Assembly: GCA_965203805.1 (NCBI GenBank)
Contig: OZ241917.1
Span: 3,264,001-3,328,000 of the forward strand
Length of the DNA stretch: 64,000 nt
Source of the DNA: Candidatus Latescibacterota bacterium
Lineage (GTDB): Bacteria > Latescibacterota > UBA2968 > GCA-2709665
Direction: 5' to 3'
In this document: positions 4,425-63,695 of the stretch, piece after piece
Layout of the letters: the number at the start of each line of letters is the position of its first letter
Position numbering within the stretch: position 1 is the stretch's first letter
Made by a program: the position numbers and the translations under genes
Notes under the pieces: model-generated
What the model was told of the DNA's origin: nothing
What the model saw: only the letters and a program-made list of their open reading frames with translations
Database searches by the model: none

Positions 4425-5878
4425 ATCGGTGAGACGGGAGAAGGAAAAATGAAGAATTAAGAATGAAAACCTGAAGGCGGGGAGACGGTAGAGGAAACGA
4501 CCCGCTGGTTCCGGTTTGCCTATGGCATCCTGACAGGGCGCCTGTCGGCGGACAAACACCCGTTGGAACTGCGTTCCGGGCGATCCCAAACTTCACATCT
4601 CTAATTTACTTTTTTCTTCTTCGTCCTTTTTCTTATCCACGTGTACGGACCAAAAAGAAGCGTGCCTGCCTGCCGAGCAGGCTTCGGCGCAGGCAGGCCG
4701 CTCAAACGCCGCGGGGCTGCTTTTCCGCGAACCGCTTCCGTGGAGACACCGGGAGACGTTGCCCTGAAACCCTTACAGGCGTACCTGGACGACGTTGCTG
4801 GACGGACTCGCGCGGAAAAGCCCCATCCCCACCGCCATGCGCTTGAGTGAACTGCGCGAGGTTTGATGCATTTGTGATCTTGACGATTATGCGCTTGAGA
4901 ACCCCCGACACCCCCCCCCAACCTACCCCCTATCCCCCTTCCCGAAGGAAGGGGGAACGGCGATCCTATCAGGGAGTCCTGGTTGTCTCCCCCTCTCCCC
5001 CCGGGAGAGGGGGTTGGGGGGAGAGGTCTGCGGGGCTGGGAGTGGTTCGCTCCTGGCTGCTTCGTTTTTCTTCGTGTCTTCGTGCCTTTGTGTGAGCTGA
5101 CTTTGAATCTTGTTCTGACTATCGCTTCTGTTTCTGGCTGACTGCTGCTTTTCCCCCCTCCTCAGACCTACCCCCTAGCCCCCTTCCTGTGAGGAAGGGG
5201 GAACGGCGATGGGTCGATGGACCAGGCATGCAGACGTGCCGGCTGGCGAATTCCTGTCTATCAGTGTATCTATAGATGACCGGCACGCGATGACTGTCTT
5301 TTCTCCCCCTCTCCCCTTGGGAGAGGGGGCCTGCCTGCCGAGCAGAACTCGGCGCAGGCAGGCCGGGGGGAGAGGTCGCGTAAAAGCGGTGAGACGTAAG
5401 AGGTTAGACGGTAGATGAAGGCGGTGAGACGGTAGAGGTTAGACGGTAGATAATAACGTTACCACAGTGTTTTCACGCTAACCGTGCCTGTTTCTTTACC
5501 GATATGGTAACGACAAGAAAGACCATAGGGCACTGATATCATCTCCCGTCTTACGTCTCACGTCTCCCCGCCTTTCAGACCTACCCCCTAGCCCCCTTCC
5601 TGTGAGGAAGGGGGAACGGCGATGGGTCGATGGACTGGGCATGCAGACGTGCCGGGCTGGCGATTTCCTGTCAATCAGTGTATCTATAGATGACCGGCAC
5701 GCGATGCCTGTCTCTTCTCCCCCTCTCCCCCCGGGAGAGGGGGTTGGGGGGAGAGGTCTGCGGGGCTGGGGGTGGTTCGCTCCTGGCTGCTTTGTTTTTC
5801 TTCGTGTCTTCGTGCCTTTGTGTGAGCTGATTTTCGCTCTTGACTCAAGCTGATTGCTGATGGCTGATTGCTGTTTTT
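4425..5878 (+). repeat. Mosaic intergenic hairpin-module array 1
   Basis: Modules such as gtcctgacagg.., ttttccgcg..cgcggaaaa, ccccttcc..ggaagggg and cgtgccgg..ccggcacg are shared with 8 other loci. Confidence 0.9.
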
Positions 5879-5880
5879 CG

Positions 5881-6855
5881 CTATACATCCGCAATCGACA
5901 CGGGTTCGCCGGTTTCGAGAGACCGGTTCACCGCCACCACGACCTCCTGGGTCCTTACGGCATCCGAGTACGGACATCGCAGCTTCGATCCGTCGCCGGT
6001 ACGCACCGCTTCGATGAAGGCGTTGTCCATCTCCTGCCAGTAGGGGTTGCCGACCTCGATATGTTCCGACCGGTCGCCCTGTACAACGGTAATGGACTTT
6101 CTCTCGTTGTACTGGATCACCATATCCTTCGTGAAAATATCCAGCCCGCCGCGATGGCCGCACGACAGGAAACAGGCCGAAAAGAGCGTTGCCAGCGTGC
6201 CGTTTTCGAAAATCAACGTGGCCGCGCTCGCGTCTTCAATATCGTAGTCCTCCACGTCCGTCATCAACCCCGTACGGCCCCCGGCGAACACGGTTTTCAC
6301 CTCGCCGAAGAGATACCGGGCCATATCGGTCACGTGGACCGTCTGCTCGACGGCCTGCCCCCCGGACATCTGCTTCCGCCGCCACCAGGGGGTGCCCGGC
6401 AGCCCGCCCATCCAGTACCCGATGGCCAGCCCGACCGGACGGTCCGCAAGAAGGTCCCGCGTCCTGTCGATAATGTCCAGGTACCGGCCCTGGAAACCCA
6501 CGCAGGAGATCACGCCGTGCTCCCGGATGGCCGCGTCCGCCTCCCGCGCCGTATCCATGCCGAGCGAGATCGGCTTCTCGACAAAGAGCGCGATTCCCTT
6601 CTCCGCGGCCATAATCTCCTGCGTCTCGTGCGCAAATGGAGGGATGCAGATGTAGACCGCATCCAGTTCCACGTTGTTCAGCATGGACCGGTAATCCGTG
6701 AATACCTTCGCATCCCACTCCGCCGCGGCCTCGGCGGCCTTCGCCCGTTCCACGTCGCAAACGGCCACCACCGACACGTCGTCCATGACTTTCAAATGCC
6801 GGCGATGCGCGCGTGAGATGTTTCCCGCGCCGATGAACCCGACTTTCACCGTCAT
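5881..6855 (-). CDS. Gfo/Idh/MocA family oxidoreductase
   Basis: VGFIGAGNI Rossmann motif, EKP motif, SGG...H. Confidence 0.9.
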   Translation of the reverse strand: MTVKVGFIGAGNISRAHRRHLKVMDDVSVVAVCDVERAKAAEAAAEWDAKVFTDYRSMLNNVELDAVYICIPPFAHETQEIMAAEKGIALFVEKPISLGMDTAREADAAIREHGVISCVGFQGRYLDIIDRTRDLLADRPVGLAIGYWMGGLPGTPWWRRKQMSGGQAVEQTVHVTDMARYLFGEVKTVFAGGRTGLMTDVEDYDIEDASAATLIFENGTLATLFSACFLSCGHRGGLDIFTKDMVIQYNERKSITVVQGDRSEHIEVGNPYWQEMDNAFIEAVRTGDGSKLRCPYSDAVRTQEVVVAVNRSLETGEPVSIADV

Positions 6856-6906
6856 TTACATTTCCTTTACGGTATTCGATCCCAACCCGCCGGTTACGGC
6901 CGGTTT

Positions 6907-11269: not shown

Positions 11270-12530
11270 CCTTTGAAACTAACCTCCGGCAGGACAAGGG
11301 CTTAACCTCTCCCACAAACTCTATTTTCTCTTCGTCCTTTTTCTTGTACGCCCAAGAAAAAGGACCAAAAAGAACGGCGCCTGCCTGCCGAGCAGGCTTC
11401 GGCGCAGGCAGGCCGCTCGGCGCGGGGCCGGTTTTTCCGTGAACCACCTCAGTGGCGGAATTGGAATTTAGGTGCCCTGTCACCGGACCAGCCCATCCCG
11501 AACGATGTTGCTGGACGGATTTGCACGGAAAAACCCCCCACTCCACCACCGTACGCCTATTAGGACCACATGATGTTTGGAACGAAAATATCGCTAGCGA
11601 TTGTGCGTTTAAAAACCCCCCTCACCACCGCCGACCTACCCCCTATCCCCCTTCCCGGAGGGAAAGGGGGAACGGTGATCCTTTCAGGGTGTCCTGGTTG
11701 TCTCCCCCTCTCCTCACAGGAGAGGGGGCCGGGGGGAGAGGTCGCGTAACAGCGGGGAGACGTAAGAGGTGAGACGTTAGATGACGTCCTTGCCTGATTG
11801 GATCTTACTTTATGCCTGCGGCAAGAAATGAAACCGTACAGGGCACACAATATCTCCCGTCTTACGTCTCCCGTCTCCCCGCCCTTAGGGAATTTGGGGA
11901 GCTATGGATGTTGAATCTGATATTCGCTCTTGCTTCAAGCTGACTGCCGAATGCTGACCGCTGTTTGGTTTTCTTTGTGTCTTTGTGTCTCCGTGTGATA
12001 GGAATTTCGGTTTCGACTAAGCTCCGACGCCTGTCTTTTCTCCCCCTCTCCCCCCGGGAGAGGGGCCGGGGGGAGAGGTCGCGTAAAAGCGGTGAGACGT
12101 AAGAGGTGAGACGTTAGATGACGTCCTTGCCTGATTGGATCTTACTTTATGCCTGCGGCAAGAAATGAAACCGTACAGGGCACACAATATCTCCCGTCTT
12201 ACGTCTCCCGTCTCCCCGCTCTTCAGGCACTCACGGTATCTCCCGTCTAACGTCTCCCGTCTTACCGCCCCTCAGACCTACCCCCTTTCAGGGTGTCCTG
12301 GTTGTCTCCCCCTCTCCCCCCGGGAGAGGGGGCCGGGGGGAGAGGTCTGCGGGGCTGGGGGTGGTTCGCTCTCGGCTGAATGCTGACAGCTGTTTCTCAA
12401 CGGCAGGGAATTTGGGGAGATGTGGATGTTGAAGTTGATTCTTGTTTTTGATTCTCGCTCTTGCTTCAAGCTGACTGCCGAATGCTGACCGCTGTTGGCT
12501 GGTTGGGCGGCCGGGGGGAGAGGTCTCGTT
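11270..12530 (+). repeat. Mosaic array 2
   Basis: Same modules; internal ~160-bp direct duplication (~11722-11882 and ~12059-12218). Confidence 0.9.
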
Positions 12531-12663
12531 TCGTTCTTGATCGGAGGGGCGTTGTACGCTACCTTTCCAGCGAATGACGCGAGCGCGTCTACGCCGTTAC
12601 GGGCGCCGTTTTCGCCGCGGCCCGGACACTTTCACATCGGGTTGTTCGGAAGGGACCGACAGC

Positions 12664-15012
12664 ATGCACCCCGCGCCACATCCACCGTTTCGCACCGCCG
12701 CCGTCCTGGGCGCGGGCGTTATGGGATCGCAGATTGCCGCCCACCTGGCCAACGCCGGACTGTCCGTTCATCTTCTGGATCTTCCGGGCGGCGAAAGAAA
12801 CCGAAACGGGATTGTCGACGGCGCGCTGAAAGGACTCGAGCGTCTCAACCCCGCCCCCCTCTTTACGGAAGGAACCGCCCGCCGCATCACCCCCGGCAAT
12901 ATCGAGGACGACTTCCACCGTGCGTCCGAAGCGGACTGGATCATCGAAGCGGTCGTGGAGAAACCGGACGTCAAGCAGGAGATCATGGCGCGCGTGGAAT
13001 CCGCCGCGAACCGCCATGCCGTCATTTCCACCAACACCAGCGGCATTCCGATCCACCTGATCGCGCAGGGACGGTCCGCCGATTTCAGGCGGCGCTTCCT
13101 CGGCGCGCACTTCTTCAACCCGCCGCGCTACCTCAAGCTCCTCGAACTCATCCCCCTTCCCGATACGGATTCATCCGTTGTCGATCGCATTTCCCGGTTC
13201 GGCAGCGAACGGCTCGGGAAAGGCATTGTTGTCGCGAACGACACGCCCGGCTTCATCGGCAACCGCATCGGCGTGTACGCCATGATGCAGTGTATCCGGG
13301 CCTTTACGGATGAGGGGTATACGATCGAGGAAGTCGACGCCCTTACAGGCCCGCTGCTGGGACGTCCCAGGTCCGCCACGTTCAGAACTGCGGACGTTGT
13401 CGGTCTGGATACGCTCGTGCACGTTGCGGGTTACCTCCACGATGCCCTGCCGAACGACGAAAGCCGGGACGGGTTCCGGGTTCCCGAAGTGGTCGACCGG
13501 CTGGTTGCGGACGGCGCCACCGGCGCCAAGGCGGGCAGCGGGTTCTATAAGAAAGAGGGCCGAAACATCCTCTCGTTCAACCCCGAGACCCGGGCATACG
13601 ACCTGCCGGCGGAACCAGGACTGGGCGACCTCGAACCCGTTCGGAAACAGAGGGACCTTTCCCGGCGCCTTTGCGACCTCTACGCGAACGACGGGCGGGC
13701 GGGCGCTTTCTTCCGGAACCATCTCCTGGAAGTCCTGTCGTACAGCGCTCGCCGCATCCCGGAGATCACCGCCAATCCGGCCGACATCGACCGCGCGCTT
13801 CGCTGGGGATTCGGCTGGGAGGCAGGGCCCTTCGAAATGTGGGATATGATCGGATTCGATACCCTCCTCGGGGACATGGCCGCCGAAAACATCCCCCTGC
13901 CGGGCTGGATCGAAAGCATGTCCGGGGCGGGCGCCGCGGGATTCCGCGACCGCTCGCGGGTCTATACGCCGGATCGCGGATACGTGCGGGAATCGGGAGA
14001 AGAAAACGCCTCGCCCGCGGTTCGCACGGACAAGCCCCACGTCCGGTGGCGAAACGAGGACGCCGTTCTCCTGGACTTGGGAGAGGACATCGCCCTCTTC
14101 GAATACCGCTCCAAGGCAAACTCCATGGGCGAGACACTCGTTCGCGGGCTTGTTGACGCGGTCGACATCGTCGAATCGGGAAATTACCGCGGCATGGTCA
14201 TCTGCAACGGAGGGAAGAATTTCTCGGTGGGCGCCAACCTGGGGGAGATGGTCGCGCACGCGGAGCAGAAACGCTTCGATCGGATGCACGGACTCATTGT
14301 CAATTTCCAGCAGATGATCCAGCGTGTCCACTATTCCGCCAGACCGGTCGTCGTCGCCACCCACGGCCGCGTCCTTGGCGGCGGCTGCGAACTCACGCTG
14401 GCCTGCGCCAGTCCCGTGGCCGCGGCGGAATCCTACATCGGACTCGTGGAACTGGCCGTGGGACTCATCCCCGGCGGCTGCGGCACCATGCGCATGGCGG
14501 CGATTTCGCACGAGCGGGCTTCATCCGAGCAGGACAGCCACATCCAGCCCTTCCTGACCAGGGCCTTTGAAACGGTGGCGACGGCAAAGGTATCCAACAG
14601 CGCCCATCAGGCTCGGGAGTACGGGTTCCTTCCGCCGGCGTCGCCCATTGTGATGAACCAGGACCACCGGCTGGACGCCGCCAGACAGGAAGTCCTGCGC
14701 CTCTCGAACCAGGGATACGCGCCGCCGCCGGTCCGCAACGGCATCCGGGTACTCGGGCAGCCGGCCCGCGCGCGGTTCGAAGTGACGACCTACAATATGC
14801 TCCGTTCGGGTTTCATCTCCGAATACGACCGCTATCTGGCGAACCGGTTCGCGTACGTGCTGACCGGCGGAGACCTCAGCGGTCCCGCGAACGTACACGA
14901 AGACTATCTCCTCGAGCTGGAACGCGAAGTGTTCGTCGCCCTTACGGGCGAAGAGAAGACCCGGGAACGCATCTACAGCATCCTCCGAACCAACAGACCC
15001 CTGAGAAACTAA
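12664..15012 (+). CDS. 3-hydroxyacyl-CoA dehydrogenase / enoyl-CoA hydratase fusion (FadN-like)
   Basis: AVLGAGVMG, STNTSG, HFFNPPRY, C-terminal crotonase domain with GGGCE. Confidence 0.9.
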   Translation: MHPAPHPPFRTAAVLGAGVMGSQIAAHLANAGLSVHLLDLPGGERNRNGIVDGALKGLERLNPAPLFTEGTARRITPGNIEDDFHRASEADWIIEAVVEKPDVKQEIMARVESAANRHAVISTNTSGIPIHLIAQGRSADFRRRFLGAHFFNPPRYLKLLELIPLPDTDSSVVDRISRFGSERLGKGIVVANDTPGFIGNRIGVYAMMQCIRAFTDEGYTIEEVDALTGPLLGRPRSATFRTADVVGLDTLVHVAGYLHDALPNDESRDGFRVPEVVDRLVADGATGAKAGSGFYKKEGRNILSFNPETRAYDLPAEPGLGDLEPVRKQRDLSRRLCDLYANDGRAGAFFRNHLLEVLSYSARRIPEITANPADIDRALRWGFGWEAGPFEMWDMIGFDTLLGDMAAENIPLPGWIESMSGAGAAGFRDRSRVYTPDRGYVRESGEENASPAVRTDKPHVRWRNEDAVLLDLGEDIALFEYRSKANSMGETLVRGLVDAVDIVESGNYRGMVICNGGKNFSVGANLGEMVAHAEQKRFDRMHGLIVNFQQMIQRVHYSARPVVVATHGRVLGGGCELTLACASPVAAAESYIGLVELAVGLIPGGCGTMRMAAISHERASSEQDSHIQPFLTRAFETVATAKVSNSAHQAREYGFLPPASPIVMNQDHRLDAARQEVLRLSNQGYAPPPVRNGIRVLGQPARARFEVTTYNMLRSGFISEYDRYLANRFAYVLTGGDLSGPANVHEDYLLELEREVFVALTGEEKTRERIYSILRTNRPLRN

Positions 15013-24427: not shown

Positions 24428-25572
24428 ATCGCATCCTCCTGACTATCCGATCCTCGGGGAAATTGCGCGAGGGCGCGCTGATTCGATGTACTTTTTCATA
24501 ACGCCTGTCGGCCGGTAATGGTTGCAGGGAACTGAAGAGAAGGAAGAAGGAAAAAGGAAGAAGGAAGAAGGAAGAAGGAAAACCGGTTGTGGTCCTCGTT
24601 CGTATTATCCATCATGTCCTGACAGGCCGCCTGCCGGCGGACAGACACCCGTTGGAACTAACCTCCTGGGGGACATTGACTTTACTCCTCCAACCAACTT
24701 TCATTTTCTCTTCGTCCTTTTTCTTGTACGCCCAAGAAAAAGGACCAAAAAGAACGGCGCCTGCCTGCCGAGCAGGCTTCGGCGCAGGCAGGCCGCTCGG
24801 CGCGGGGCCGGTTTTTCCGTGAACCACCTCAGTGGCGCAATTGGAATTTGGGTGCCCTGTCACCGAAACAGCCCTGCCGGAACTATGTTGCTGGACGGAT
24901 TTGCACGGAAAAACCCCCCTCTCCACAACCGTCCGCTTGATAGGAACTTACAAAGCACCGTACGGCGATGTTCCTGCGCGCTGGAGCGTTTACAGACCCA
25001 CCAACCTACCCCCTATCCCCCTTCCCGGGGGGAGGGGGAAACTGTGATCCCCTCGTGGTGTCCTGGTTTGCTCCCCCTCTCCCCCCGGGAGAGGGGGCCG
25101 GGGGGAGAGGTCTGAGGGGTTGGGGGTGAGGGCGCTCTTGATTCTGGCTGACGGCTGAGAGCCGACCGCTGATTGCTGCTCTAAGGAAGGGAGAAAGCGG
25201 GATCCTATCGCGTGGCGTTCGTTACCCTTTCCTTATAGGAGAGGGTCCCTGTCTGGCGGTGGTTTTTCGGCAGGCAGGGGGGAGAGGTCTGCGTAAATTC
25301 GGGGAGACGTAAGAGGGTAGACGGTAGATGAAGACATTTACCGCAGTGTTTCTACATAAACCGTGCCTGTTTTTTTACCGATATGGTAACGACTGGAAAA
25401 ACCATGGGGCACTGATATCATCTCCCGTCTCACGTCTACCCGCCTCCGCCGACCTACCCCCTATCGCGTGGCGTTCGTTACCCTTTCCTTATGGGGCTTA
25501 TATACTTAACTTGATATTTGTTTTAGGTTGTTCTACCAATCAACCCGTCAACATCACAGAGGAGAAGTTGAT

Positions 25573-25845
25573 ATGAAAAGGGACCTTGAATTGCGAGATT
25601 GGATCCTAACAGTGCTCGAAGACGCTGATGATCCATATTTGAGCCAGTATGTAATCATCGAAAGAGTAAATAAATCAACTAACGACGAATACACCGAAGA
25701 GCAAATCCTCCACCATATACTCCTCGCCTCTGATATGGGTCAGGTGAAAGTGAACAACGGCGAAATTCGCCTCACAAACGACGGCCATAATCATATTGAA
25801 AAGATGAGGGAACCATCACGAGCTAGTTTGCCGCCAGATCAATAG
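25573..25845 (+). CDS. Small DUF2513-like winged-helix protein
   Basis: GAGGAG RBS; MKRDLEL..IL..LE N-terminus and RLTNDGH..IE C-terminus resemble DUF2513. Confidence 0.6.
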   Translation: MKRDLELRDWILTVLEDADDPYLSQYVIIERVNKSTNDEYTEEQILHHILLASDMGQVKVNNGEIRLTNDGHNHIEKMREPSRASLPPDQ

Positions 25846-25970
25846 TAAAACGCTTGCCGATCACACAGAGAAAGACTTGCGCCATCTGAACATTAATGTC
25901 CAACTGGCGCGCGTTGTTCTTTGGGGCCAACAACCCTCCCGCAGACGCCCTAGAAACAAGAGAATACCAT

Positions 25971-26225
25971 ATGAGCTTCATGATCAGCTACGATATGGGA
26001 GACGATGCAAACTACGAAAAAATCATAACGCGTCTCAATCTCCTCAATGGAAAACCCATCCTCAAATCCCAATGGATCATAAATTCACCATTATCGATTG
26101 AGCAACTATTCGACATCCTCAGTCCTTCTATCGGCCGAAAGCACCACCTCCTAATCATGCCCATCGGAGATGCCCTTTCAAGATCCAAAGGCCGTCGCCT
26201 TCCACGATGCTGGCGCGAATTTTAG
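25971..26225 (+). CDS. Small Cas2/VapD-like ferredoxin-fold protein
   Basis: MSFMISYD...Y..I...L.....ILKSQWII pattern; no CRISPR array or cas1 nearby. Confidence 0.55.
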   Translation: MSFMISYDMGDDANYEKIITRLNLLNGKPILKSQWIINSPLSIEQLFDILSPSIGRKHHLLIMPIGDALSRSKGRRLPRCWREF

Positions 26226-26312
26226 GCTCCGAGAAACTACCTTCAAAGCATCCTTCTCCTCTTTCGACTCCGGCTCAAACGTCAAACTTCCATCTCGCCA
26301 GTAAACACGCAC
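26178..26312 (-). CDS. 44-aa small protein (MRVYWRDGSLTFEPESKEEKDALK...)
   Basis: AGGAGG 5 nt before GTG; open to TGA at 26178; below the ORF-track cutoff. Confidence 0.45.
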   Translation of the reverse strand: MRVYWRDGSLTFEPESKEEKDALKVVSRSLKFAPASWKATAFGS

Positions 26313-26598
26313 CCAAGCCTCCTATCTATTAATTATATAGTATTTCGATCCCTAGAAAACGACGGGACACCCATTGACCGGTCTGCAAAACCGCGAGGGT
26401 GTACCACCTCTCCCGCACAAAACCTATATCAAGTTAAGTATATAAGTCCTTTCCTTATAGGAGAGGGTCCCTGCCTGGCGGTGGTTTTTCGGCAGGCAGG
26501 GGGGAGAGGTCTGAGGGGTTGGGGGTGAGGGCGCTCTTGATTTTGGCTGACGGCTGATAGCTGACCGCTGATTGCTGCTCTACCGAACGTTTTCACAC

Positions 26599-38401: not shown

Positions 38402-38419
38402 GAACCCTGCTCAGTTTCA

Positions 38420-39635
38420 GGGAAAGGGAAGAAGGAGAAAGAATTAAGAATGAAGAATGAAAACGGGATGGTCCTCGTGGGGATTATCTATCGCGTCCTG
38501 ACAGGCCGCCTGCCGGCGGACAAACACCCGTTGGAACTGCGTTCCGGGCGGTCCCAAACTTCAATTTTCTTTTTTCCTTCATGCCCTTTTTCTTGCTTCG
38601 CCCAAGAAAAAGGGCCAAAAAGAAGGGCGCCGCTCAAACGCCGCGGGGCTGCTTTTCCGCGAACCGCTTCAGTGGAGACAACGGGAGTCGTTGCCCTGAA
38701 ACCCTTACAGGCGTTCCCGGACGACGTTGCTGAACGGACTCGCGCGGAAAAGCCCCTTCACCACCACCGTTCGCTTGAGTGAACTGCGCGAGGTCTGATG
38801 CATTTGCGGTCTTGACGATTATGCGCTTCAGACCCCCACCCCCGCCAACCTACCCCCTAACCCCCTTCCTGTGAGGAAGGGGGAACGGCGATGGGTCGAT
38901 GGACTGGGCATGCAAACGTGCCGGCTGGCGAATTCCTGTCTATCAGTGTATCTATAGATGACCGGCACGCGATGCCTGTCCTTTCTCCCCCTCTCCCCCC
39001 GGGAGAGGGGGTTGGGGGGAGAGGTCTGCGTAAATTCGGTGAGACGTAAGAGGGTAGACGGTAGATGAAAACGTTACCACAGTGTTTTCACGCTAACCGT
39101 GCCTGTTTCTTTACCGACTATGGTAACGACGAGAAAGACCATAGGGCATTCATCTCACGTCTACCCTTTTCGAGACCCATTCCCTGACCCCCTTCCTGCG
39201 AGGAAGGGGGAAAGCGGGATCCTATCGCGTAGCGTTCGTTACCCTTTCCTTATAGGAGAGGGTCCCTGCCTGCCGGTGATTTTTCGGCAGGCAGGGGGAT
39301 AGGTCTGCGCATCCGCGAGGTCATGTCGCCAGGCCTTATCGTCGCCCCGTTGAAGCAGGTTGTCATCCCTCATCTCACGTCTCACGTCTTGCGTCTCCCC
39401 GCCAACCTACTGCCTACCCCCTTCCTATAAGGAAGGGGGACCCCCGGATCCTATCGCGTAGCGTTCGTTTCCCTTTCCTTATAGGAAAGGGTCCTGCCTG
39501 CCGGTGATTTTTCGGCAGGCAGGGGGATAGGTCTGCGCATCCGCGAGGTCATGTCGCCAGGCCTTATCGTCGCCCCGTTGAAGCAGGTTGTCATCCCTCA
39601 TCTCCCGTCTCACGTCTAACGTCTCCCCGCTCTTC
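38420..39635 (+). repeat. Mosaic array 4, between arc and dop
   Basis: Same modules; internal duplication ~39218-39400 / ~39447-39630. Confidence 0.9.
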
Positions 39636-39636
39636 G

Positions 39637-41358: not shown

Positions 41359-41374
41359 CTCCGGGATCGAAAAG

Positions 41375-42385
41375 GGAGAATTAAGAATTGAGAATGAAGA
41401 ATGAAAACGGGATGGTCCTCGTGCGGTCTATCCATCGTGTCCTGACGGGGCGCCTGGCGGCGGACAGATTCCCGTTGGAACTGCGTTCCGGGCGGTCCCA
41501 AACTTCAAACTTCAATTTTCTTTTTTCCTTCATGCCCTTTTTCTTGCTTCGCCCAAGAAAAAGGGCCAAAAAGAAGGGCGCCTGCCTGCCGAGCAGGCTT
41601 CGGCGCAGGCAGGCCGCTCAAACGCCGCGGGGCTGCTTTTCCGCGAACCGCTTCAGTGGAGACAACGGGAGACGTTGCCCTGAAACCCTTACAGGCGTTC
41701 CCGGACGACGTTGCTGGACGGACTCGCGCGGAAAAGCCCCACCCCATCCTCCGTGCGTTCGATAGAACCTCGCGAAGTTACCTGCGATGAACTTCTTGCG
41801 CGATGCAACGCTTGCAATCTCCCACACCACCGCCAACCTACTGTCTACCCCCTTCCCGAAGGAAGGGGCCCCCCCGGATCCTATCGCGTGGCGTTCGTTA
41901 CCCTCTCCTCACAGGAGAGGGTCCCTGCCTGGCGGTGGTTTTTCGGCAGGCAGGGGGGAGAGGTCTGCGCATCCGCGAGGTCATGTCGCCAGGCCTTATC
42001 GTCGCCCCGTCGAAGCAGGTTGTCATCCCTCCTCTGCCGTCCTACATCTCACCTCTCCCCGCCTTTGAGACCTACCCCCTAACCCCCTTCCTGTGAGGAA
42101 GGGGGAACGGTGACGGGTCGATGTCCTGGGCATGCAAATGTGCCGGGTGGCGAATTCCTGTCAATCAGTGTATCTATTGATGACCGGCCCGCGACACCTG
42201 TCTTTTCTCCCCCTCTCCTCACAGGAGAGGGGGCCTGCCTGCCGAGCAGGTCTCGGCGCAGGCAGGCCGGGGGGAGAGGTCTGCGGGGCCGGGAGGGGTT
42301 CGCATTCGGCTGACTTTTGATTGTGATGTTCGCTCTTGATTCAAGCTGACGGCTGATCGCTGATAGCTGCTCTTTGCTGCCTTTC
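41375..42385 (+). repeat. Mosaic array 5
   Basis: Same modules in the same orientation. Confidence 0.9.
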
Positions 42386-42386
42386 G

Positions 42387-51064: not shown

Positions 51065-51069
51065 CGGAA

Positions 51070-52478
51070 AGTCAATTAAGAATTAAGAATGAAGAATGAA
51101 GAATTAAAACCTGAAGGCGGGGAGATGGGAAAGGGAGGGGGAGGAGGAAGGAAGAAGGAAAACCTGTCCCGTCTCACGTCTACCCCGCCGCCGACCTACC
51201 CCCTATCGCGTGGCGTTCGTTACCCTTTCCTTATAGGAGAGGGTCCCTGCCTGGCGGTGGTTTTTCGGCAGGCAGGGGGGAGAGGTCACGCATCAGGGAG
51301 GAGGTCTCGCCCGGCCATATCGTCGTCCCGTGGCCGCGAGTGATCATCTCCCGTCTTACGTCTTGCGTCTCCCCGCCTTTCAGACCTACCCCCTAACCCC
51401 CTTCCTGTGAGGAAGGGGGAACGGTGACGGGTCGATGGACCGGGCATGCAAACGTGCCGGCTGGCGAATTCCTGTCTATCAGTGTATCTATAAATGACCG
51501 GCACGCGAAGTCTGTCTCTTCTCCCCCTCTCCCCGCCTCCGCCGACCTACCCCCTATCGCGTGGCGTTCGTTACCCTTTCCTTATAGGAGAGGGTCCCTG
51601 CCTGGCGGTGGTTTTTCGGCAGGCAGGGGGGAGAGGTCTGCGCATCAGGGAGGAGGTCTCGCCCGGCCATATCGTCGTCCCGTGGCCGCGAGTGATCATC
51701 TCCCGTCTTACGTCTTGCGTCTCCCCGCCTTTCAGACCTACCCCCTATCCCCCTTCCTGTGAGGAAGGGGGAACGGTGACGGGTCGATGGACCGGGCATG
51801 CAGACGTGCCGGCTGGCGAATTCCTGTCTATCAGTGTATCTATAAATGACCGGCACGCGAAGTCTGTCTCTTCTCCCCCTCTCCCCGCCTCCGCCGACCT
51901 ACCCCCTAGCCCCCTTCCTGTGAGGAAGGGGGAACGGTGATGGGTCGATGGACCGGGCATGCAAACGTGCCGGCTGGCCAATTCCTTTCTATCAGAGTAT
52001 CTATAGATCACCGGCACGCGAAGTCTGTCTTTTCTCCCCCTCTCCCCGCCTCCGCCGACCTACCCCCTATCGCGTGGCGTTCGTTACCCTCTCCTCACAG
52101 GAGAGGGTCCCTGCCTAGCGGTGGTTTTTCGGCAGGCAGGGGGGAGAGGTCGCGCATCAGGGAGGAGGTCTCGCCCGGCCATATCGTCGTCCCGTTGACG
52201 CAGGTTGTCATCTCCCGTCTTACGTCTTGCGTCTCCCCGCTCTTCAGGCACTCACGGTATCTCACGTCTCACGTCTTGCGTCTCCCCGCCTTTCAGACCT
52301 ACCCCCTATCGCGTGGCGTTCGTTACCCTCTCCTCACAGGAGAGGGTCCCTGCCTGGCGGTGGTTTTTCGGCAGGCAGGGGGGAGAGGTCTGCGGGGAGG
52401 GGGGTTGGGTGGAGAGGGGTTGGGGGTGAGGGCGATTCTGCTTCAAGCTGATTGCTGAAAGCCGACAGCTGATCGCTG
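51070..52478 (+). repeat. Mosaic array 6
   Basis: Same modules; ~351-bp tandem unit starting at 51191 and 51542. Confidence 0.9.
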
Positions 52479-52479
52479 T

Positions 52480-53943: not shown

Positions 53944-55079
53944 CGAATCTCCACGAAGTGCTGAATCGCTTTCTTTATTTCCTCTTCGGTGTATGAAACC
54001 GCGTGATTGTTGTCGCGCTCAATACGTTGAACTGATACCGTCGGTCCAGGATGTACGTCAAGGGAAGACGCACCAGCATTTGCAGCCAAACTGCTAAGGC
54101 AATCGTAATTGTGCGTGGTTGCGAACACCTGAACTTCGAAAATTCGTGCAGTCTCAACTATCAGTTTCCACATGTCCGACATTGCGGAGTAGTGGAGGCC
54201 CGTGTCGATTTCATCGACCAACAGAACTCCGCCACGACATTGCGTAATTGCGATTGCGAGCGAGAATAAGCGCCAAATGCCGTCACCCATACTGCCTATC
54301 GGTACAGGATTCTCAAAGCGACTGTGTTTTACGATAAATCCGGATCGGCCAGCGCTTCCAGTCCAGTCGCGTCTGTACGGGGTACTGAGCGCAACAATTC
54401 GTTCAATGCCCGGATCGATACACGCCAACGCCGTGAGAACAAGCTCTTCGTCAGACGTAAGTGCGATAACGTTCCACATTTCAACAAGCTCGTCTGCATC
54501 CATCGCATCCGTGGTAATGTAACGTACACGGGACACGTGATCACGCGCTCGACCCCTTCGCAATCGCCGTGGGATGTCCAGCGATTCGGCTGACAATGTA
54601 CCGGTAGCGCTCAAGGGAATTAAATCCGCTATCGGTGAGGGAGCCCCCTCCAAGCGAAGGCCCAATTGTGGGATATTCTCTCCTGGGGAGCTGAACAGGT
54701 CTGATTCTTTATCAGTTAAATCCGCCACTTCGACCTTTAGATGTTGTCGTGGAGACTGATTCATCGCTGACAATTTAAATGCCGTCTTAACGTGAAGTTG
54801 GTGACCGGTAAACAGGTGGGACGTATCCACTTCGGGATAGGCGCGCCCTGATGGCCTGGTTCTTTCAACTCCATTCTCACCCCTGCGCCTGAGTATCTGC
54901 CACAACGCCCGGGGGTCGGCCTGACTGGTTAGCAGGTGGAGGGCCTCCAACAAGGATGTTTTTCCACTATTGTTCGCCCCAACCAGAAGATTGACAAGTG
55001 CCAGGTCGTCCATGTCGAAACGCTCAAATCCCCTGAACCCTTCAATGTGGATCGAGGAAATCACCAGGAGAGTCCTCAC
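53940..55079 (-). CDS. AAA_15/AAA_21 (ABC-type) ATPase
   Basis: GANNSGKT, MGDG signature, LLVDEIDTGLH, ATTHN. Confidence 0.88.
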   Translation of the reverse strand: MRTLLVISSIHIEGFRGFERFDMDDLALVNLLVGANNSGKTSLLEALHLLTSQADPRALWQILRRRGENGVERTRPSGRAYPEVDTSHLFTGHQLHVKTAFKLSAMNQSPRQHLKVEVADLTDKESDLFSSPGENIPQLGLRLEGAPSPIADLIPLSATGTLSAESLDIPRRLRRGRARDHVSRVRYITTDAMDADELVEMWNVIALTSDEELVLTALACIDPGIERIVALSTPYRRDWTGSAGRSGFIVKHSRFENPVPIGSMGDGIWRLFSLAIAITQCRGGVLLVDEIDTGLHYSAMSDMWKLIVETARIFEVQVFATTHNYDCLSSLAANAGASSLDVHPGPTVSVQRIERDNNHAVSYTEEEIKKAIQHFVEIR

Positions 55080-57461: not shown

Positions 57462-57653
57462 ACTTTGATTCGTCATTATTCGGGGACGTTAATTCGAATA
57501 TGTGCAAGTGAATAAAGGTGATTTAACTGCTGATTTCTATGATCCTTCAGGTCACTGGACGTGAACGGAAAAAATGTTCTTCCGGACGACCTTTTCCGCC
57601 CAATTCGAAAGGTGTTGTCGCGACGCCGCGTTGCTGATTTTGTCGCATTAAGG
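57462..57653 (+). repeat. ~190-bp dispersed element, copy 2
   Basis: Matches 15012-15203. Confidence 0.85.
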
Positions 57654-57739
57654 TCCATTATTGACCGGTGAACCCCAACCCGCTTTTCACGATCCCTTCC
57701 GCTTACTTTAACGAACCGGACCGGGTTCCGTTCCGTAGA

Positions 57740-58713
57740 ATCGGGGAGACGAGAGACGGGAAAAGGAAGAATGAAGAATGAAAACCGGTTGGTCCTCCTG
57801 CCGTTTCTCCATCGTGTCCTGACAGGGCGCCTGGCGGCGGACAGACACCCGTTGGAACGACGTTCCGGGCGGTCCCAAACTTCAATCTTCAATTTTCTTT
57901 TTTCCTTCATGCCCTTTTTCTTGCTTCGCCCAAGAAAAAGGGCCAAAAAGAAGGGCGCCTGCCTGCCTGCCAAAGCGTCACTGGCAGGCGCAGGCAGACC
58001 GCTCAAACGCCGCGGGGCTGCTTTTCCGCGAACCGCCTTCGTGGAGGGAACATGCGCCGCTGACCTGAAACCCTTGCAGGCGTTCCCGGACGACGTTGCC
58101 GGACGGACTCGCGCGGAAAAGCCCCTTCTCCACCACCGCCGACCTACCCCCTATCCCCCTTCCTGCCTGGAAGGGGGAACGGTGACGGGTCGATGGACCG
58201 GGCATGCAAACGTGCCGGCTGGCGAATTCCTGTCTATCAGTGTATCTATAGATGACCGGCACGCGATGCCTGACTTTTCTCCCCCTCTCCCCGCCTCTTC
58301 GGGACCTATCCCCCTTCCCGGGGGGAAGGGGGACCCCCGGATCCTATCGCGTGGCGTTCGTTTCCCTTTCCTTATAGGAAAGGGTCCTGTCTGCCGTGAT
58401 TCTTCGGCAGGCAGGGGGATAGGTCTGCGCATCCGCGAGGTCATGTCGCCAGGCCTTATCGTCGCCCCGTTGAAGCAGGTTGTCATCCCCCATCTCACGT
58501 CCTACGTCTACCCGCTACCCACTTCTTCGAGACCTACCCCCTAACCCCCTTCCTGCCTGGAAGGGGGAACGGTGACGGGTCGATGGACCGGGCATGCAAA
58601 CGTGCCGGCTGGCGAATTCCTGTCTATCAGAGTATCTATAGATCACCGGCACGCGATGCCTGTCTTTTCACCCCCTCTCCCCCCGGGAGAGGGGGCCGGG
58701 GGGAGAGGTCTGC
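57740..58713 (+). repeat. Mosaic array 7
   Basis: Same modules in the same orientation. Confidence 0.9.
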
Positions 58714-58883
58714 GTTTCGACTATGCCACAAGGGCTGTCTGGACAGCGGATCCCGCACATCCTGGAAGCGTGTTCGCGCTATGCATATGGCAGGCACCAC
58801 GCTCGGTGTTCTGTCCCGGAAATAAGTTGCCTGAAAATGGTGAGGTATTTTTGGGACGGGACGCTGAATCGGCGTCACCCGAT

Positions 58884-58914
58884 AAAAAAACCGGGGCGGC
58901 CGCTGTCCCGGTTT
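58884..58914 (-). terminator. Intrinsic terminator
   Basis: A7-CCGGG..CCCGG hairpin downstream of the minus-strand gene cluster. Confidence 0.55.
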
Positions 58915-58942
58915 GCGTGGATACATCAAAAAGTGAATCAAT

Positions 58943-59125
58943 TCAATCCTGATAGCCGTTGTTGAGGAAAGGCGGATCTTCTTTGAAACCTTCACTTCCT
59001 TTCGCCTTCTCTTCGGAAAGCCATTTCCTGATCAGCTCGTCCCGTTCCTTCCGGCCCTCTTCCCGGCCCCGTCGAAGTCCCCGTTCACGGTTCCACCGTC
59101 TAACCGCCTCGTGGATGCCCAACAT
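58943..59125 (-). CDS. Small charged hypothetical protein
   Basis: GGAGGTG RBS; RERGLRRGREEGRKE low-complexity helix. Confidence 0.5.
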   Translation of the reverse strand: MLGIHEAVRRWNRERGLRRGREEGRKERDELIRKWLSEEKAKGSEGFKEDPPFLNNGYQD

Positions 59126-59214
59126 AAGATCCTTCACCTCCAATAAAACGAAAGAAGACGTTACCGCGAAGAGCCCAGAAACACGCCTGAACTTTCTTTC
59201 TTCACTGCGCGCCT

Positions 59215-59874
59215 CTACTCCGATCCCGCCGTGGCCGGTTCGGTTGCGGAAGTTAATGCTTCCGGGCTTTTCCCGATCGGGCCTCCACCATAGAGAACCG
59301 TCGGAAGTTCGGGCACCTTTTCTTCTCTGTCTTTCGACAATCTCATCACAGTTTTTTGAGCGGTCTCGGTTATCTGCTCCAATTCATCGTCACTGCGAGC
59401 AATGCCCTGAACATCTCGGTGACTCTTCAAAAACAGAAGAATCGCGTTGTACATATACTCTTCGAAAAAGTTCTCCACACCTCGCTTGATAGCGTGATCG
59501 TCTTCTACAAGAGCAGCCAGATGGTTCAAATAGTGGAAAACTTGAAGTGTGTGAAACTTAACCATATCAACAGAGGTAGCTTCTTCGTTTTCGAGGGAGA
59601 TCCCACACTTGAGACCTAGTCCCGAAGCATACCGTGCAACATCTTCAAGAGTTAACTCTGAATTTCGACGGGATTCCAAAGCATCAATATGCTCCTCAGA
59701 AGTGCCAAGTTTCCTGGCCAGATCCCGCTGCGACATCTTTGCTCTGCACCTGACAGAATGCAAGAAAAACGCACAGCCGTGATCCCTGATTTCCTTCTCC
59801 AACTCGTCGCAAAGCTCAGGATCTTCTGTCGTGTCCCTCACCATTGCCATTACTGAGCTGTATCGCTTGGACAT
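59215..59874 (-). CDS. XRE-family HTH protein, HigA-like antitoxin with C-terminal extension
   Basis: MSQRDLARKLGTSEEHIDALE HTH; GGAGG RBS; follows the toxin-like gene. Confidence 0.7.
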   Translation of the reverse strand: MSKRYSSVMAMVRDTTEDPELCDELEKEIRDHGCAFFLHSVRCRAKMSQRDLARKLGTSEEHIDALESRRNSELTLEDVARYASGLGLKCGISLENEEATSVDMVKFHTLQVFHYLNHLAALVEDDHAIKRGVENFFEEYMYNAILLFLKSHRDVQGIARSDDELEQITETAQKTVMRLSKDREEKVPELPTVLYGGGPIGKSPEALTSATEPATAGSE

Positions 59875-59883
59875 GGCGCCTCC

Positions 59884-60279
59884 TCATTTCCTTTTCTCGT
59901 TCTGGGCCTCAAGTTTGTCAATATACCTTTTGCAATCCTTGAGATCCGTATCTTGTGTGTCCTTATAACCCATCGTTATGAAATACAAGGTTCGGGTCTC
60001 TACATGTGGATACACATAGAGACGAGCTTCCGGCAAATTTCCCCGACCTCTCTGATCAATTTCGAGCAGGCCCCGATCTCCACCACCACGAACCTTGCCC
60101 CGCTTGCGTACCTCCCCCAATTGTACACCATCGTTTAAAGCACTAAAAACTCTCGCAAAATTCATCATCACGGCTACCATCACATCTTTATCCTTCTTCT
60201 CAAACCACTTTTTCTTCCTCAAAAACAAATTCGATGGAAGTATCGTCCAATCTTCCGAATCCAACACTTCGCGCTCCAT
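59884..60279 (-). CDS. RelE/HigB-like toxin
   Basis: Basic 131 aa; GLLEI..RLYVY..G.KDTQDTDLK pattern; toxin-first order. Confidence 0.6.
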   Translation of the reverse strand: MEREVLDSEDWTILPSNLFLRKKKWFEKKDKDVMVAVMMNFARVFSALNDGVQLGEVRKRGKVRGGGDRGLLEIDQRGRGNLPEARLYVYPHVETRTLYFITMGYKDTQDTDLKDCKRYIDKLEAQNEKRK

Positions 60280-60563
60280 TCAATTGACATAAGTCTCCAC
60301 AGTACGGCGCAATAATGCCAAAATCAAGATCAAAAGCCAAGGTACTGCTCCCACGCATGCCGCACCAGACAATACCTAATCACAAAAAACCGCATTGCAC
60401 AACTTAGGTTTCCAAAGATTGGACTGACAATCCTTGAGGAGATCCTCCATCCCTGTCATGCCAAGCATCCCATTCTAACATTACGATAGAATCCGAAGAT
60501 ACAAGCGACGTGCCCTGCAACAGGCTCTACAAGAACCTGAGGCGTACAATCTAAATCCCCTCT

Positions 60564-60588
60564 CTGTCAAATTGAGTATATAAGCCCG
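60564..60588. mobile_element. Solo IS1595-like terminal repeat
   Basis: CTGTCAAATTGAGTATATAAGCCCG, 20/25 identical to the cassette TIR; borders a low-GC segment. Confidence 0.55.
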
Positions 60589-60824
60589 TAAGGAAAATAT
60601 GCCCCTATCCCTAACATTCCAAACAGACTTTCTGTGATCCATTCGAGCAATTTTCTATTTTTGAGACCACGAGGACAGGTTCAGCAGCCGGAACAGATCG
60701 TTTCAGACCGCAAATAAGGCCACGCGCGAGATTCTTCGGGACGCAATTTACGAATCATTCGATACAATATATCCATTCCATCCCGGATCGTCAAGAGCGG
60801 CACCGGTTGTACGGGAAAAGCCTA

Positions 60825-62013
60825 AAAAGCGGTGAGACGGGAAAGGGAGGAAGGAGGAAGGAACAAGGAAAAATGAAGAAGGAAGAAGGAAAACCGGTTG
60901 GTCCTCCTGCCGTTTCTCCATCGTGTCCTGACAGGGCGCCTGGCGGCGGACAGACACCCGTTGGAACGACGTTCCGGGCGGTCCCAAACTTCAATCTTCA
61001 ATTTTCTTTTTTCCTTCATGCCCTTTTTCTTGCTTCGCCCAAGAAAAAGGGCCAAAAAGAAGGGCGCCTGCCTGCCTGCCAAAGCGTCACTGGCAGGCGC
61101 AGGCAGGCCGCTCAAACGCCGCGGGGCTGCTTTTCCGCGAACCGCTTCAGTCGAGAATACGGGAGACGTTGCCCTGAAACCCTTGCAGGCATTCCCGGAC
61201 GACGTTGCTGGACGGACTCGCGCGGAAAAGCCCCTTCCCCACCACCGGACGCTTGATAGGAACTTACAAGGAACCGTACGGCGATGTTCCTGCGCGCTGG
61301 AGCGTTTACAGATCCCCCGCTCCCCACCGCCGACCACCCCCTAACCCCCTTCCTGCCAAGAAGGGGGAACGGTGACGGGTCGATGGACCGGGCATGCAAA
61401 CGTGCCGGCTGGCGAATTCCTGTCTATCAGTGTATCTATAAATGACCGGCACGCGAAGTCTGTCTTTTCTCCCCTCTCCTCCCCGCCAACCTACCCCCTA
61501 TCCCCCTTCCTGTGAGGAAGGGGGAACGGTGATCCTATCAGGGAGTCCTGTTTGTCTCCCCCTCTCCCCCCGGGAGAGGGGGTTGGGGGGAGAGGTCTGC
61601 GGGGCTGGGGGTGGTATGCAACTGGCGTTCGTTGCCCTTTCCTTATAGGAAAGGGTCCCTGCCTGGCGGTGGTTTTTCGGCAGGCAGGGGGGATAGGTCT
61701 GCGCATCCGCGAGGTCATTTCGCCAGGCCTTATCGTCGCCCCGTTGAAGCAGGTTGTCATCTCCCGTCTCACGTCTCCCCGCTTCTGAGGGGGCCGGGGG
61801 GAGAGGTCGCGTAAAAGCGGTGAGAGGGGAGAGGGGACAATTAAAAATTAAGAATGAAAACCTGAAGGCGGTGAGAGGGTAGACGTTAGACGGTAGATGA
61901 AGGCGGTGAGACGGGAAAGGGAGGAAGGAACACGGAAGAAGGAAGAATGAAAACCGGTTGGTCCGCGTGCGTCTTATCCATAGCGTCCTGACAGGTCGCC
62001 TGCCGTCGGACAC
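60825..62013 (+). repeat. Mosaic array 8
   Basis: Same modules; ends in a truncated module next to the Uma2 stop codon. Confidence 0.9.
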
Positions 62014-62024
62014 TGAGAAGCTAC

Positions 62025-62573
62025 TTAAAATACTTCGTCGATGTTCAACTTAAAACCCTGCAAAGTAGCCGAAGTCAACGTCTCTCCTTTACCGTAGACG
62101 TCCGCAACCACCAATCCTCTTTCCCCAGGCAGCAGGACCGTGATTGTTTTTTCCTCAGTGTCCACCATCCAGTACTCTCCCACGCCGTGCCTGGCATACA
62201 GTACCCGCTTGAATGTCGTGTCGCGTGTGGCCGTGGACGCAGAGAGGATTTCGACGATCAGGTCCGGCGCTCCCTGCACGTTTTCGGGGGTGATGATACT
62301 GCCGCGTTCGTTGGAGACAAAAAGCAGATCGGGTTGCACCACGTCCAGGTCCGACAACACCACGTCGAAAAGAGCGTGATAGACTCGACCCAGGTTGTTC
62401 TCAGACGCAAACTGAAACAGTTTCGATCCCAGCAGGATGGACACGCTCTGGTGAAGTTCTCCAGGCGCAGGCGTCATAGCCAACTCTCCGTCAAGCAGTT
62501 CATACCGCTTGTCTTCCGGTGTGTTCAGGTAGTCTTCGTAGGTAAACTTGACCGTTGGATTCGGGATCGCCAT
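62025..62573 (-). CDS. Uma2 family endonuclease
   Basis: FTYEDY, RYELLDG, VQPDL, APDLIVEILS, GVGEYW. Confidence 0.9.
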   Translation of the reverse strand: MAIPNPTVKFTYEDYLNTPEDKRYELLDGELAMTPAPGELHQSVSILLGSKLFQFASENNLGRVYHALFDVVLSDLDVVQPDLLFVSNERGSIITPENVQGAPDLIVEILSASTATRDTTFKRVLYARHGVGEYWMVDTEEKTITVLLPGERGLVVADVYGKGETLTSATLQGFKLNIDEVF

Positions 62574-62769
62574 GGTTGCCGCCCTTTCTCCGGAGACGGT
62601 TTTCGTGCGTGACACTGGAATCAGCAACGCGGGACCTCACGTGGTCCGCATAGGTTCCTTGCCGGCTCAGGAACCGCAACCGGGGAAACGACGCCGGTTA
62701 ACGCGTCCCCCTCTTGCCAATGACGCTATACAAAATATCCATCGCATTGCATTTCGTCAAGCCTGAACC

Positions 62770-63695
62770 GCCGAAGAAGGAAGAGGAAGAAGGGGTGGTC
62801 CTCGTGCGGTTTATCCATTGTGTCCTGACAGGACGCCTGCCGGCGGACATACACCCCTTGGAACCGCGTTCCGGCCGGTCCCAAACTTTACTTCTTCAAT
62901 CTTCAATTTTTCTTCCTGCCCTTTTTCTTGCTTCGCCCAAGAAAAAGGGCCAAAAAGAAGGGCGCCTGCCTGCCTGCCAAAGCGTCACTGGCAGGCGCAG
63001 GCAGGCCGCTCAAACGCCGCGGGGCTGCTTTTCCGCGAACCGTTTCGGTGGCGAATACGGAAGTCGTTGCCCTGAAACCCTTGCAGGCGTTCCCGGACCA
63101 CGTTGCTGGACGGACTCGCGCGGAAAAGCCTCTTCCCCACCGCCGGACGCGTGATAGGAACTTACAAGAAACCGTACGGCGATGTTCCTGCGCGCTGGAG
63201 CGTTTACAGACCCGCCTCTCCTCACCGCCGAGACCTACCCCCTAGCCCCCTTCCTGTGAGGAAGGGGGACCCCCGGATCCCGTCGCGTGGCGTTCGTTAC
63301 CCTTTCCTTATAGGAAAGGGTCCCTGCCTGGCGGTGGTTTTTCGCCAGGCAGGGGGGATAGGTCTGCGCATCCGCGAGGTCATGTCGCCAGGCCTTATCG
63401 TCGCCCCGTTGAAGCAGGTTGTCATCTCCCGTCTTACGTCTCCCGTCTCCCGGCCTTTCAGACCTACCCCCTTCCTATAAGGAAGAAGGAAAGCAGGATC
63501 CTATCGCGCGGCGTTCGTTTCCCTTTCCTTATAGGAAAGGGTCCCTGCCTGGCGGTGGTTTTTCGGCAGGCAGGGGGGAGAGGTCTGCGCATCCGCGAGG
63601 TCATGTCGCCAAGCCTTATCGTCGCCCCGTTGACGCAGGTTGTCATCTCCCGTCTCACGTCTAACGTCTCACCAGGGGAGGGGGGTTGGGAGGAA
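62770..63695 (+). repeat. Mosaic array 9
   Basis: Same modules in the same orientation. Confidence 0.9.

Follow-up and report, generated by a model that had tools for sequence, protein, structure and literature searches.

The stretch analysed here (the window, 64,000 nt; positions 3264001-3328000 of contig C1 in the closed 5,865,457-bp, 59% G+C genome of a Candidatus Latescibacterota bacterium, G000) contains nine intergenic arrays of repeat modules, all facing the same strand. We judge the chance somewhat better than even that these arrays are large, non-coding, non-autonomous composite repeats, akin to BOX elements, bacterial interspersed mosaic elements (BIMEs) and MITEs (miniature inverted-repeat transposable elements), which fill whole spacers and are restricted to the Latescibacterota lineage of the window. 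Since array polarity flips outside the window and does not follow replication, the arrays look like an oversized relative of known intergenic repeats. Small interspersed repeats are usually regarded as scattered, randomly oriented, selfish DNA; the arrays fill one spacer in four across a 250-kb zone close to the origin and reach 2 kb, yet three species share the direction of the sites.

The nine blocks, with limits set from the flanking open reading frames (ORFs), total 13,160 nt (20.6% of the window), and a repeat search of the window finds 48 direct-repeat families common to them. The initial annotation, made from the sequence alone, was thus right in describing nine intergenic arrays built from one module vocabulary, larger and more modular than classical clusters of repetitive extragenic palindromes (REPs); its kilobase scale stands as well, with the size corrected from 0.9-1.5 kb to a measured 1.0-2.1 kb. 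Scanning the window with 19 anchor motifs gave 284 matches inside the blocks, 227 on the + strand and 57 on the - strand. All 57 minus matches come from anchors that are palindromic or of low complexity (D, F, E1, h7L/h7R and a7, the h7L and h7R heptamer arms being complements of each other), and the asymmetric anchors (A1, A2, B, C1, C2, core, G1, G2, X, H and T7) have no minus match within the blocks. Every window array therefore faces + with no inverted copy, as had been claimed, and this with all four possible flanking-gene configurations represented among the nine blocks. The ORFs inside the blocks match no transposase family, also in agreement with the earlier description. According to Pfam and ORF calls, the genes that separate the blocks are ordinary (TPP enzyme, symporter for Na/Ala, UPF0182, beta-oxidation operon, MsrAB, arc-pafA-prcB-prcA Pup-proteasome cluster), with several defence-type genes in addition.

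From the sequences and the anchor scan, we read each array as a head, a series of cassettes and a tail. The head consists of AGAATGA-type heptamers and module A, after which the hairpins B and B2 and module C usually come; of the A-B-C opening proposed earlier, A holds for seven of the nine blocks and C is present in only six. The tail, which the initial annotation had missed, is a G-rich stretch with CTGATTG-type heptamers, the heptamers closing five of the nine blocks. Cassettes are opened by a 13-nt core, GACCTACCCCCTA, and run either as core-D-E with optional closing F and X or as core-G-X, where module X is GGGGGGAGAGGTC; further types are H with a heptamer arm (H-h7R) and h7 units with inverted heptamer arms. 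The nine arrays are as follows.

4425..5880, + strand: array 1, flanked by convergent genes; begins with head a7-A-(B2)-C and continues with core-D-F-X, core-D-E-F-B2-X, one h7 unit, core-D-E-F-X and tail T7; orthologous spacer in the sister genome G012, 114 bp.
11270..12573, + strand: array 2, between +/+ genes; no A head; B-B2, core-D/F-X, repeated h7 units and tail T7; G012 spacer, 391 bp.
24443..26579, + strand: array 3, between divergent genes; head-to-tail array at 24530-25170, then G-X and an h7 unit, with G-X-T7 at 26448-26580; a non-repeat stretch of about 0.9 kb in between holds two small ORFs (25528-26225); G012 spacer, 608 bp.
38402..39636, + strand: array 4, the whole spacer between pafA and arc (both on -).
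41359..42386, + strand: array 5, in the spacer upstream of arc; consists of head 41369-41520, B 41533-41577, B2 41580-41628, C about 41640-41790, then G-X, H and core-D-E-F-B2-X, tail about 42290-42386.
51065..52479, + strand: array 6, between convergent genes; a7 head without A-B-C, alternating core-G-X, H-h7R and core-D-E cassettes, tail T7; G012 spacer, 316 bp.
57516..59214, + strand: array 7, between -/- genes; modules recognisable up to about 58700.
60280..62024, + strand: array 8, between -/- genes; modules at 60825-62012, with a second, partial head at 61830-62012.
62628..63768, + strand: array 9, between a Uma2 gene and a FlgD_ig/Por_Secre_tail gene; the final + array ahead of the polarity switch.

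Core and X act as imperfect inverted ends, several cassettes being bounded by (C)AGACCT[AC][CT]CCCC, and left and right ends pair at a spacing of 100-249 nt in 65 cases genome-wide. Three units illustrate the cassette types.

5576..5760, + strand: complete core-D-E-F-X cassette with imperfect terminal inverted repeats, left CAGACCTACCCCC and right GGGGGAGAGGTCTG.
51193..51287, + strand: core-G-X cassette, 95 nt long, containing two hairpins and ending in the same terminal inverted repeats (fold z -4.4); the genome has 30 copies, divided equally between + and - (15 each).
5386..5572, + strand: h7 unit, in which inverted arms made up of GAGACGG/TAGACGG-type heptamers enclose a core of about 90 nt.

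The initial annotation had called these hairpin arrays, which is borne out for part of the modules: folded as single-stranded DNA, G (z -4.4), B (-4.2), D (-3.7) and the h7 unit (-2.4) are more stable than shuffled sequences, and E (-0.07), F (-0.5), B2 (-1.0) and A (+0.4) are no better than shuffles.

Searching the genome with the nine blocks (BLAST) gives 255 repeat patches, of which the 60 that are at least 300 bp long were counted as arrays. They are concentrated in one zone, with 33 of the 60 arrays and 34.7 of the 48.1 kb of array sequence falling within 3.24-3.49 Mb; on crude gene calls, 29 of 119 spacers carry an array there versus 25 of 3188 elsewhere. Along the genome the array orientations read +++++--+++++++++++++-----------------++++--+++++++++---+-++-, forming 12 runs compared with 30.4 ± 3.8 in shuffles, so that a random genome-wide orientation, named at the outset as one result that would overturn the description, is not what we observe. 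The window belongs to a run of 13 + arrays (3.2416-3.3277 Mb); a block of 17 - arrays (3.3356-3.4571 Mb) starts eight kb beyond its right end and is succeeded by 4 + arrays, placing the switches of polarity at 3.3277/3.3356 Mb and 3.4571/3.4646 Mb. Uniform polarity is accordingly a property of the window, and the genome as a whole is divided into orientation blocks. The core motif alone follows the same order in this region (28 +, then 31 -, then 4 +), and the share of modules on the minor strand is 2.2% over the 60 arrays. Furthermore, the h7 core, from an unrelated unit family, follows the array blocks in its 39 copies (11 runs versus 20.5 ± 3.1, P = 0.0015). The proposed independence from neighbouring genes extends to all 60 arrays, with upstream and downstream gene strands relative to the array of (-,-) in 20, (+,+) in 20, (-,+) in 11 and (+,-) in 9.

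The genes at the switch points are unremarkable (secreted Ig/cohesin-domain proteins, a BFN-UVR nuclease, oxidoreductases, TPR and ABC proteins). An inversion as the origin of the - block was rejected, both switch regions being collinear in the five congeners tested (G002, G008, G009, G012 and G014). In G016, from another genus, the genes of the - block are inverted and lie about 1.15 Mb away; this arrangement is derived, because the outgroups G015 and G020 keep that of the window. DUF559 and four-helix-bundle genes, suggested earlier as possible drivers flanked by modules, were likewise dismissed: two of six DUF559 genes lie inside arrays of the - block and the other four do not, and none of three 23S_rRNA_IVP genes touches a module.

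The initial annotation had inferred that the arrays either spread by a replication-strand-linked, single-strand hairpin mechanism like that of HUH IS200/IS605 elements or have a polar role in chromosome architecture. In spreading of the HUH type (IS200/IS605 or REP-associated tyrosine transposase, RAYT), hairpin modules would be cut and pasted on the lagging-strand template, and orientation would record fork direction. The strongly non-random, gene-independent orientation is consistent with this, as are a bona fide RAYT and a second Y1 domain in the genome and a weak association of orientation with local skew (Fisher P = 0.10), but the polarity map does not follow the replication map, and orientation is linked neither to the origin nor to the terminus. 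The dnaA gene lies at 3.640 Mb beside the genome's best DnaA-box cluster (2 of 22 perfect boxes within 223 bp), our origin candidate, and polarity does not flip there: 14 consecutive array elements to the right are +, with 9 + versus 3 - to the left. Both polarity switches fall inside one replichore, where third-codon replication skew remains negative in all three polarity blocks (-0.087, -0.047 and -0.054), and young cassettes of high similarity occur in both orientations within one replichore. An origin or terminus at the switches themselves was rejected, as neither a DnaA-box cluster nor a change of skew is found there. The convergent switch of skew and gene strand, sharp and located at 0.8 Mb, is a terminus signature. 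The opposite switch is blurred, zig-zagging from 2.7 to 4.4 Mb, so that GC skew and gene-strand bias are lopsided over the genome, and dnaA and the DnaA boxes lie inside the negative-skew zone; sampled 20-kb pieces of G016 are similarly lopsided.

The genome's Y1 proteins are not associated with the arrays. Only two Y1 matches were found, both RAYT-like and both far from arrays (loci L088 and L089). One is a clear RAYT outside the window (G000 4533506-4534117; NCBIfam REP_Tyr_transpos, 104 bits versus a cut-off of 80), and the other is embedded in a 1252-aa methylase-like frame (4546926-4550684). Instead of array modules, the RAYT is flanked by its own GTAG-tagged REP, GTAGGGCAGGGATGCCCT, with units of about 240 nt and 19 copies, of which 17 lie near the gene and none in arrays; a B2-like hairpin next to the RAYT stop codon is its sole module-like neighbour. 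TnpB (Cas12f1-like_TNB) has no match in the genome. Taken together, the flips within one replichore, the constant polarity across the origin candidate, the lack of TnpB and the separate REP family of the RAYT make replication-strand-linked spreading very unlikely.

Comparison of orthologous sites shows how quickly the arrays turn over. The window and G012 are collinear, with genes about 92% identical, and their orthologous spacers measure (window/G012, in bp) 1440/114, 1392/391, 1964/608, 1132/224, 1000/169 and 1435/316, the range over the nine sites being 1000-1964 bp in the window versus 114-608 bp in G012. Almost nothing beyond heptamer tracts aligns between them. In the 20 of 78 loci that were examined, the arc-pafA spacer ranges from 208 to 1235 bp in 10 congeners and from 0 to 240 bp in 9 relatives at a greater distance, and the spacer upstream of arc is 29 bp long in three congeners (L012, L013 and L025). 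At the site of array 5, the locus L011 carries a 283-bp head-tail element whose ends align with the window's 1028-bp array over about 120 nt of head and about 70 nt of tail, and the approximately 780 nt of cassettes between them are present in the window only. Head and tail thus persist at the site, with cassette content nearly all replaced between sister species. The comparison of filled and empty sites envisaged earlier consequently yields array-length differences at the same sites and, given the wholesale replacement, no clean empty site. Polarity is retained: at the orthologous switch, 12 + blocks give way to 15 - blocks in G012, and G002 has 7 +, then 14 -, then 2 +. The array-rich zone is syntenic, lying 115-410 kb to one side of dnaA in G000, G002 and G012.

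Within the genome, cassettes differ less within an array (p-distance 0.035-0.10) than between arrays (0.08-0.24), and cassettes of the same array are, by their sequence, younger duplicates that arose by tandem growth. In array 6, the segments 51289-51556 and 51641-51908 (268 nt each, period 352) are 99% identical. Each cassette copy is oriented as its host array, in + and - blocks alike. Copies in like and opposite orientation are equally distant (like/opposite: D-E 0.108/0.112, G 0.091/0.078, F 0.138/0.136, H 0.236/0.212), with no enrichment for the same orientation among nearest-neighbour cassettes (P = 0.06-0.63), and therefore sequence moves between blocks, yet lands in the local direction. 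Tandem duplication probably enlarges the interior of an array, and cassettes may enter by homology-guided copying, that is, gene conversion or template switching at shared junction sequences, or else by insertion targeted to resident units. With either route of entry into resident units, the head-tail scaffold would therefore fix the polarity of the site, and the co-orientation of neighbouring sites over about 100 kb would be an old, inherited state and not a read-out of present replication or transcription. If it is true that the scaffold templates copying, the arrays would be a clear example from nature of non-coding DNA in which homology drives the shuffling of cassettes.

Among described repeats, the nearest in build is BOX of streptococci, in which fixed ends surround variable, permuted inner modules (boxA-boxB(n)-boxC), as here. 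BOX elements are described as non-coding intergenic stem-loops, clustered with small repeats that insert into one another and variable between strains, with S. suis variants using seven submodules (PMC3049150, PMC10969869). The comparison of L011 with array 5 recovers the fixed ends with variable tandem inner modules, a likeness of build and not of sequence homology. The arrays depart from the BOX accounts in those papers in size (up to 2.1 kb with at least 10 module types and in another phylum, versus 67-637 bp) and in the inverted ends and target duplications of BOX, neither of which was seen for whole arrays here; regional block polarity is reported for BOX in none of the relevant passages of PMC3049150 and PMC10969869.

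REPs are short, G+C-rich extragenic palindromes that are clustered, vertically inherited and long-lived in a lineage (PMC3733652 and the REPIN literature). They carry a GTAG or CGTC tag at one palindrome end, and in many families neighbouring units stand in opposite orientation (PMC3733652). The clustering of palindromes is alike, and the window genome has a RAYT too, as in REP/REPIN-RAYT systems. The asymmetric units of the arrays are all direct, unlike the opposite REP doublets, the minor strand accounting for the 2.2% given above. No GTAG or CGTC tag was seen directly at the D, E, F and G2 stems read by eye; a CTAC belonging to the core motif stands at a distance of 8 nt from the D stem, and GTAG/CGTC is confined to heptamer arms. 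All three features sought of REP/REPIN members (cognate RAYT flanks, stem tag and opposite doublets) are hence lacking.

Cassettes resemble MITEs and nested MITE clusters in being about 95-185 nt long, intergenic and present in many copies, with imperfect inverted ends and no coding frame. Of the MITE features, terminal inverted repeats alone are found (CAGACCTACCCCC...GGGGGAGAGGTCTG on core-D-E-F-X and core-G-X, heptamer arms on h7 units); no target duplication, clean empty site or partner insertion sequence was found for the window cassettes, and they keep one orientation across about 100 kb. The only CTAG-type flanks seen are those of a MITE of the related genus represented by G016, an element of about 525 nt with 14-nt inverted ends, CCTGAATAATTCAT (e.g., L105:19100-19630). 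Copies of this MITE number at least 40, are 95-100% identical and form no runs, 21 lying on + and 19 on -. It shares only the B-B2 hairpins with the arrays, so the hairpin vocabulary travels on mobile DNA. With IS200/IS605 and its hairpin derivatives the arrays share hairpins, the lack of long inverted ends on some modules and gene-independent orientation. They differ in being mosaics instead of single elements, and neither a Y1 TnpA/TnpB partner nor a replication-tied orientation was found for them.

Several points weigh against the interpretation of the arrays as outsized BOX/BIME/MITE-like repeats. The model does not explain the co-orientation of the scaffolds over about 100 kb or the switch points common to three species, and a regional cue acting at insertion predicts a pattern no different from that of scaffold templating. 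For the window cassettes, the orthologous spacers compared show neither conversion tracts nor excision products, and neither clean empty sites nor target duplications; a crude scan for end pairs 600-3500 nt apart around a transposase, in which DDE families were not searched, returned no convincing partner insertion sequence. The weak genome-wide link to skew mentioned above rests on 79 of 132 elements being + where local skew is negative versus 32 of 68 where it is positive, and reaches P = 0.004 only once the - block is dropped post hoc. In addition, the array definition relies on likeness to the window's nine arrays, and other module families are under-counted as a result.

These points leave some room for two readings in which direction comes from the chromosome. 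In the first, which we regard as unlikely, the arrays would form a locus-anchored cassette-exchange system, with long-lived scaffolds shuffling hairpin cassettes at the 13-nt core and taking their direction from a regional, species-conserved cue that is neither replication nor transcription, so that they would mark or help build polar domains on one side of the origin. In the second, the arrays or a motif in them would be polar architecture elements read directionally by a chromosome-organising machine, converging on 3.33 Mb and diverging from 3.46 Mb. The retention of block polarity at orthologous sites in three species despite replacement of content, the obedience of the unrelated h7 core to the same blocks and the synteny of the array-rich zone relative to dnaA all agree with an architectural role. 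However, no conserved polar motif has been singled out, length varies tenfold at one site between sister species, the corresponding spacers measure 0-240 bp in other genera that have this gene order, nothing notable is encoded at the switch points, and the related G016 MITE is randomly oriented (19 runs versus 21.0 ± 3.1), which together render this second reading rather improbable. If it is true that polarity reflects a chromosomal cue, the arrays would offer a new handle on bacterial chromosome organisation.

We also consider it unlikely that the arrays are functional structured RNAs of the spacers, acting as small RNAs, insulators, terminators or mRNA stabilisers. The modules that fold better than shuffles would fit such a role, and array modules are present in contigs of one metatranscriptome run (which may contain DNA and whose contigs are strandless). 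Furthermore, arrays 4 and 5 lie inside the conserved arc-pafA-prcBA cluster, so that read-through transcription or re-initiation is required there. On the other side, the 60 arrays have no orientation preference relative to genes, promoter- and terminator-like sites show no excess (0 versus 1.0 expected and 5 versus 4.7), and array content is not conserved between species. The Rfam search raised with the initial annotation gave no match at gathering score among 4227 families over the whole window, relaxed searches yielding only far sub-threshold matches (the best at 24.9 bits versus a gathering score of 91). Strand-specific folding was rejected, since stem changes are few and the excess of G-U over A-C disappears on pairs predicted for both strands (3 versus 5). 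The frame of module A as a small protein (..VLTGRL.AD.HPLE.RSGRSQT) was discarded too, because some copies contain stops and variable columns show no third-position excess (15, 11 and 11 of 31 each by codon position).

That the arrays are an assembly artefact of collapsed or mis-joined repeats is scarcely credible, although no contig of the four runs consulted spans array 5, the array for which read support was judged from Logan contigs. Contigs of run X1 enter this array from both flanks (40900-41420 and 42260-42900) with 0 differences and cover its unique inner pieces at 41711-41868 and 42094-42231 (0-2 differences), and in run X3, from another study, the two flanks are present with 4 and 8 differences. 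Independently assembled genomes of sister species also hold arrays of this kind, at matching sites and in matching orientation. On the practical side, the arrays break short-read assemblies and give rise to spurious ORFs of 100-250 aa.

With respect to lineage range, the nearest relatives of the window are metagenome-assembled genomes (MAGs) of Candidatus Latescibacterota, with ARC ATPase identity of up to 98%. Of 41 related genomes, 32 match the array modules, among them every member of the genus (15 genomes, G000 counted in). Exact core-D matches number at least 108 among 185,579 species genomes, and among the matches listed, 80 of 80 come from Latescibacterota-type MAGs. Titles and abstract openings of the papers retrieved on Latescibacteria intergenic repeats and on heptanucleotide, short tandemly repeated repetitive (STRR) and MITE repeats contain no description of such arrays.

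At 15010-15207 of the window, a 195-nt insert without array anchors lies between fadB-like and thiolase genes, where G012 has 2 bp. The stretch at 27766-33062 (- strand) is only 80-85% identical to G012, versus about 92% in its surroundings, and encodes a 1348-aa NACHT protein (958 bits on NCBIfam antiphage EruA versus a cut-off of 1000) beside a DUF4143/AAA_14 ATPase that matches PADLOC PDC-S01 (E 5e-160). A 5.2-kb insert of lower G+C content (52-55%) at 43249-48421 is absent in G012 and contains a PDDEXK_3 nuclease gene (44005-44442, - strand), three ORFs without family matches and a tandem repeat of about seven units with a 36-nt period (43419-43689). A candidate defence pair, PDC-M38, is found at 53288-55079 (- strand) and comprises an AAA_15 ATPase and a DUF3226 gene that is split into two overlapping ORFs (53288-53647 and 53617-53943); the whole of this 2-kb cassette is absent in G012, where the orthologous place measures 26 bp. 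Likewise absent in G012 are an HTH_3/HTH_31 gene and an ORF of 130 aa that lie between arrays 7 and 8 (59215-60279, - strand; G+C about 49%). Finally, small PD-(D/E)XK-type nuclease genes recur between arrays, with Uma2 at 62025-62627 in the window and DUF559 at G000 3336199 and 3343615.

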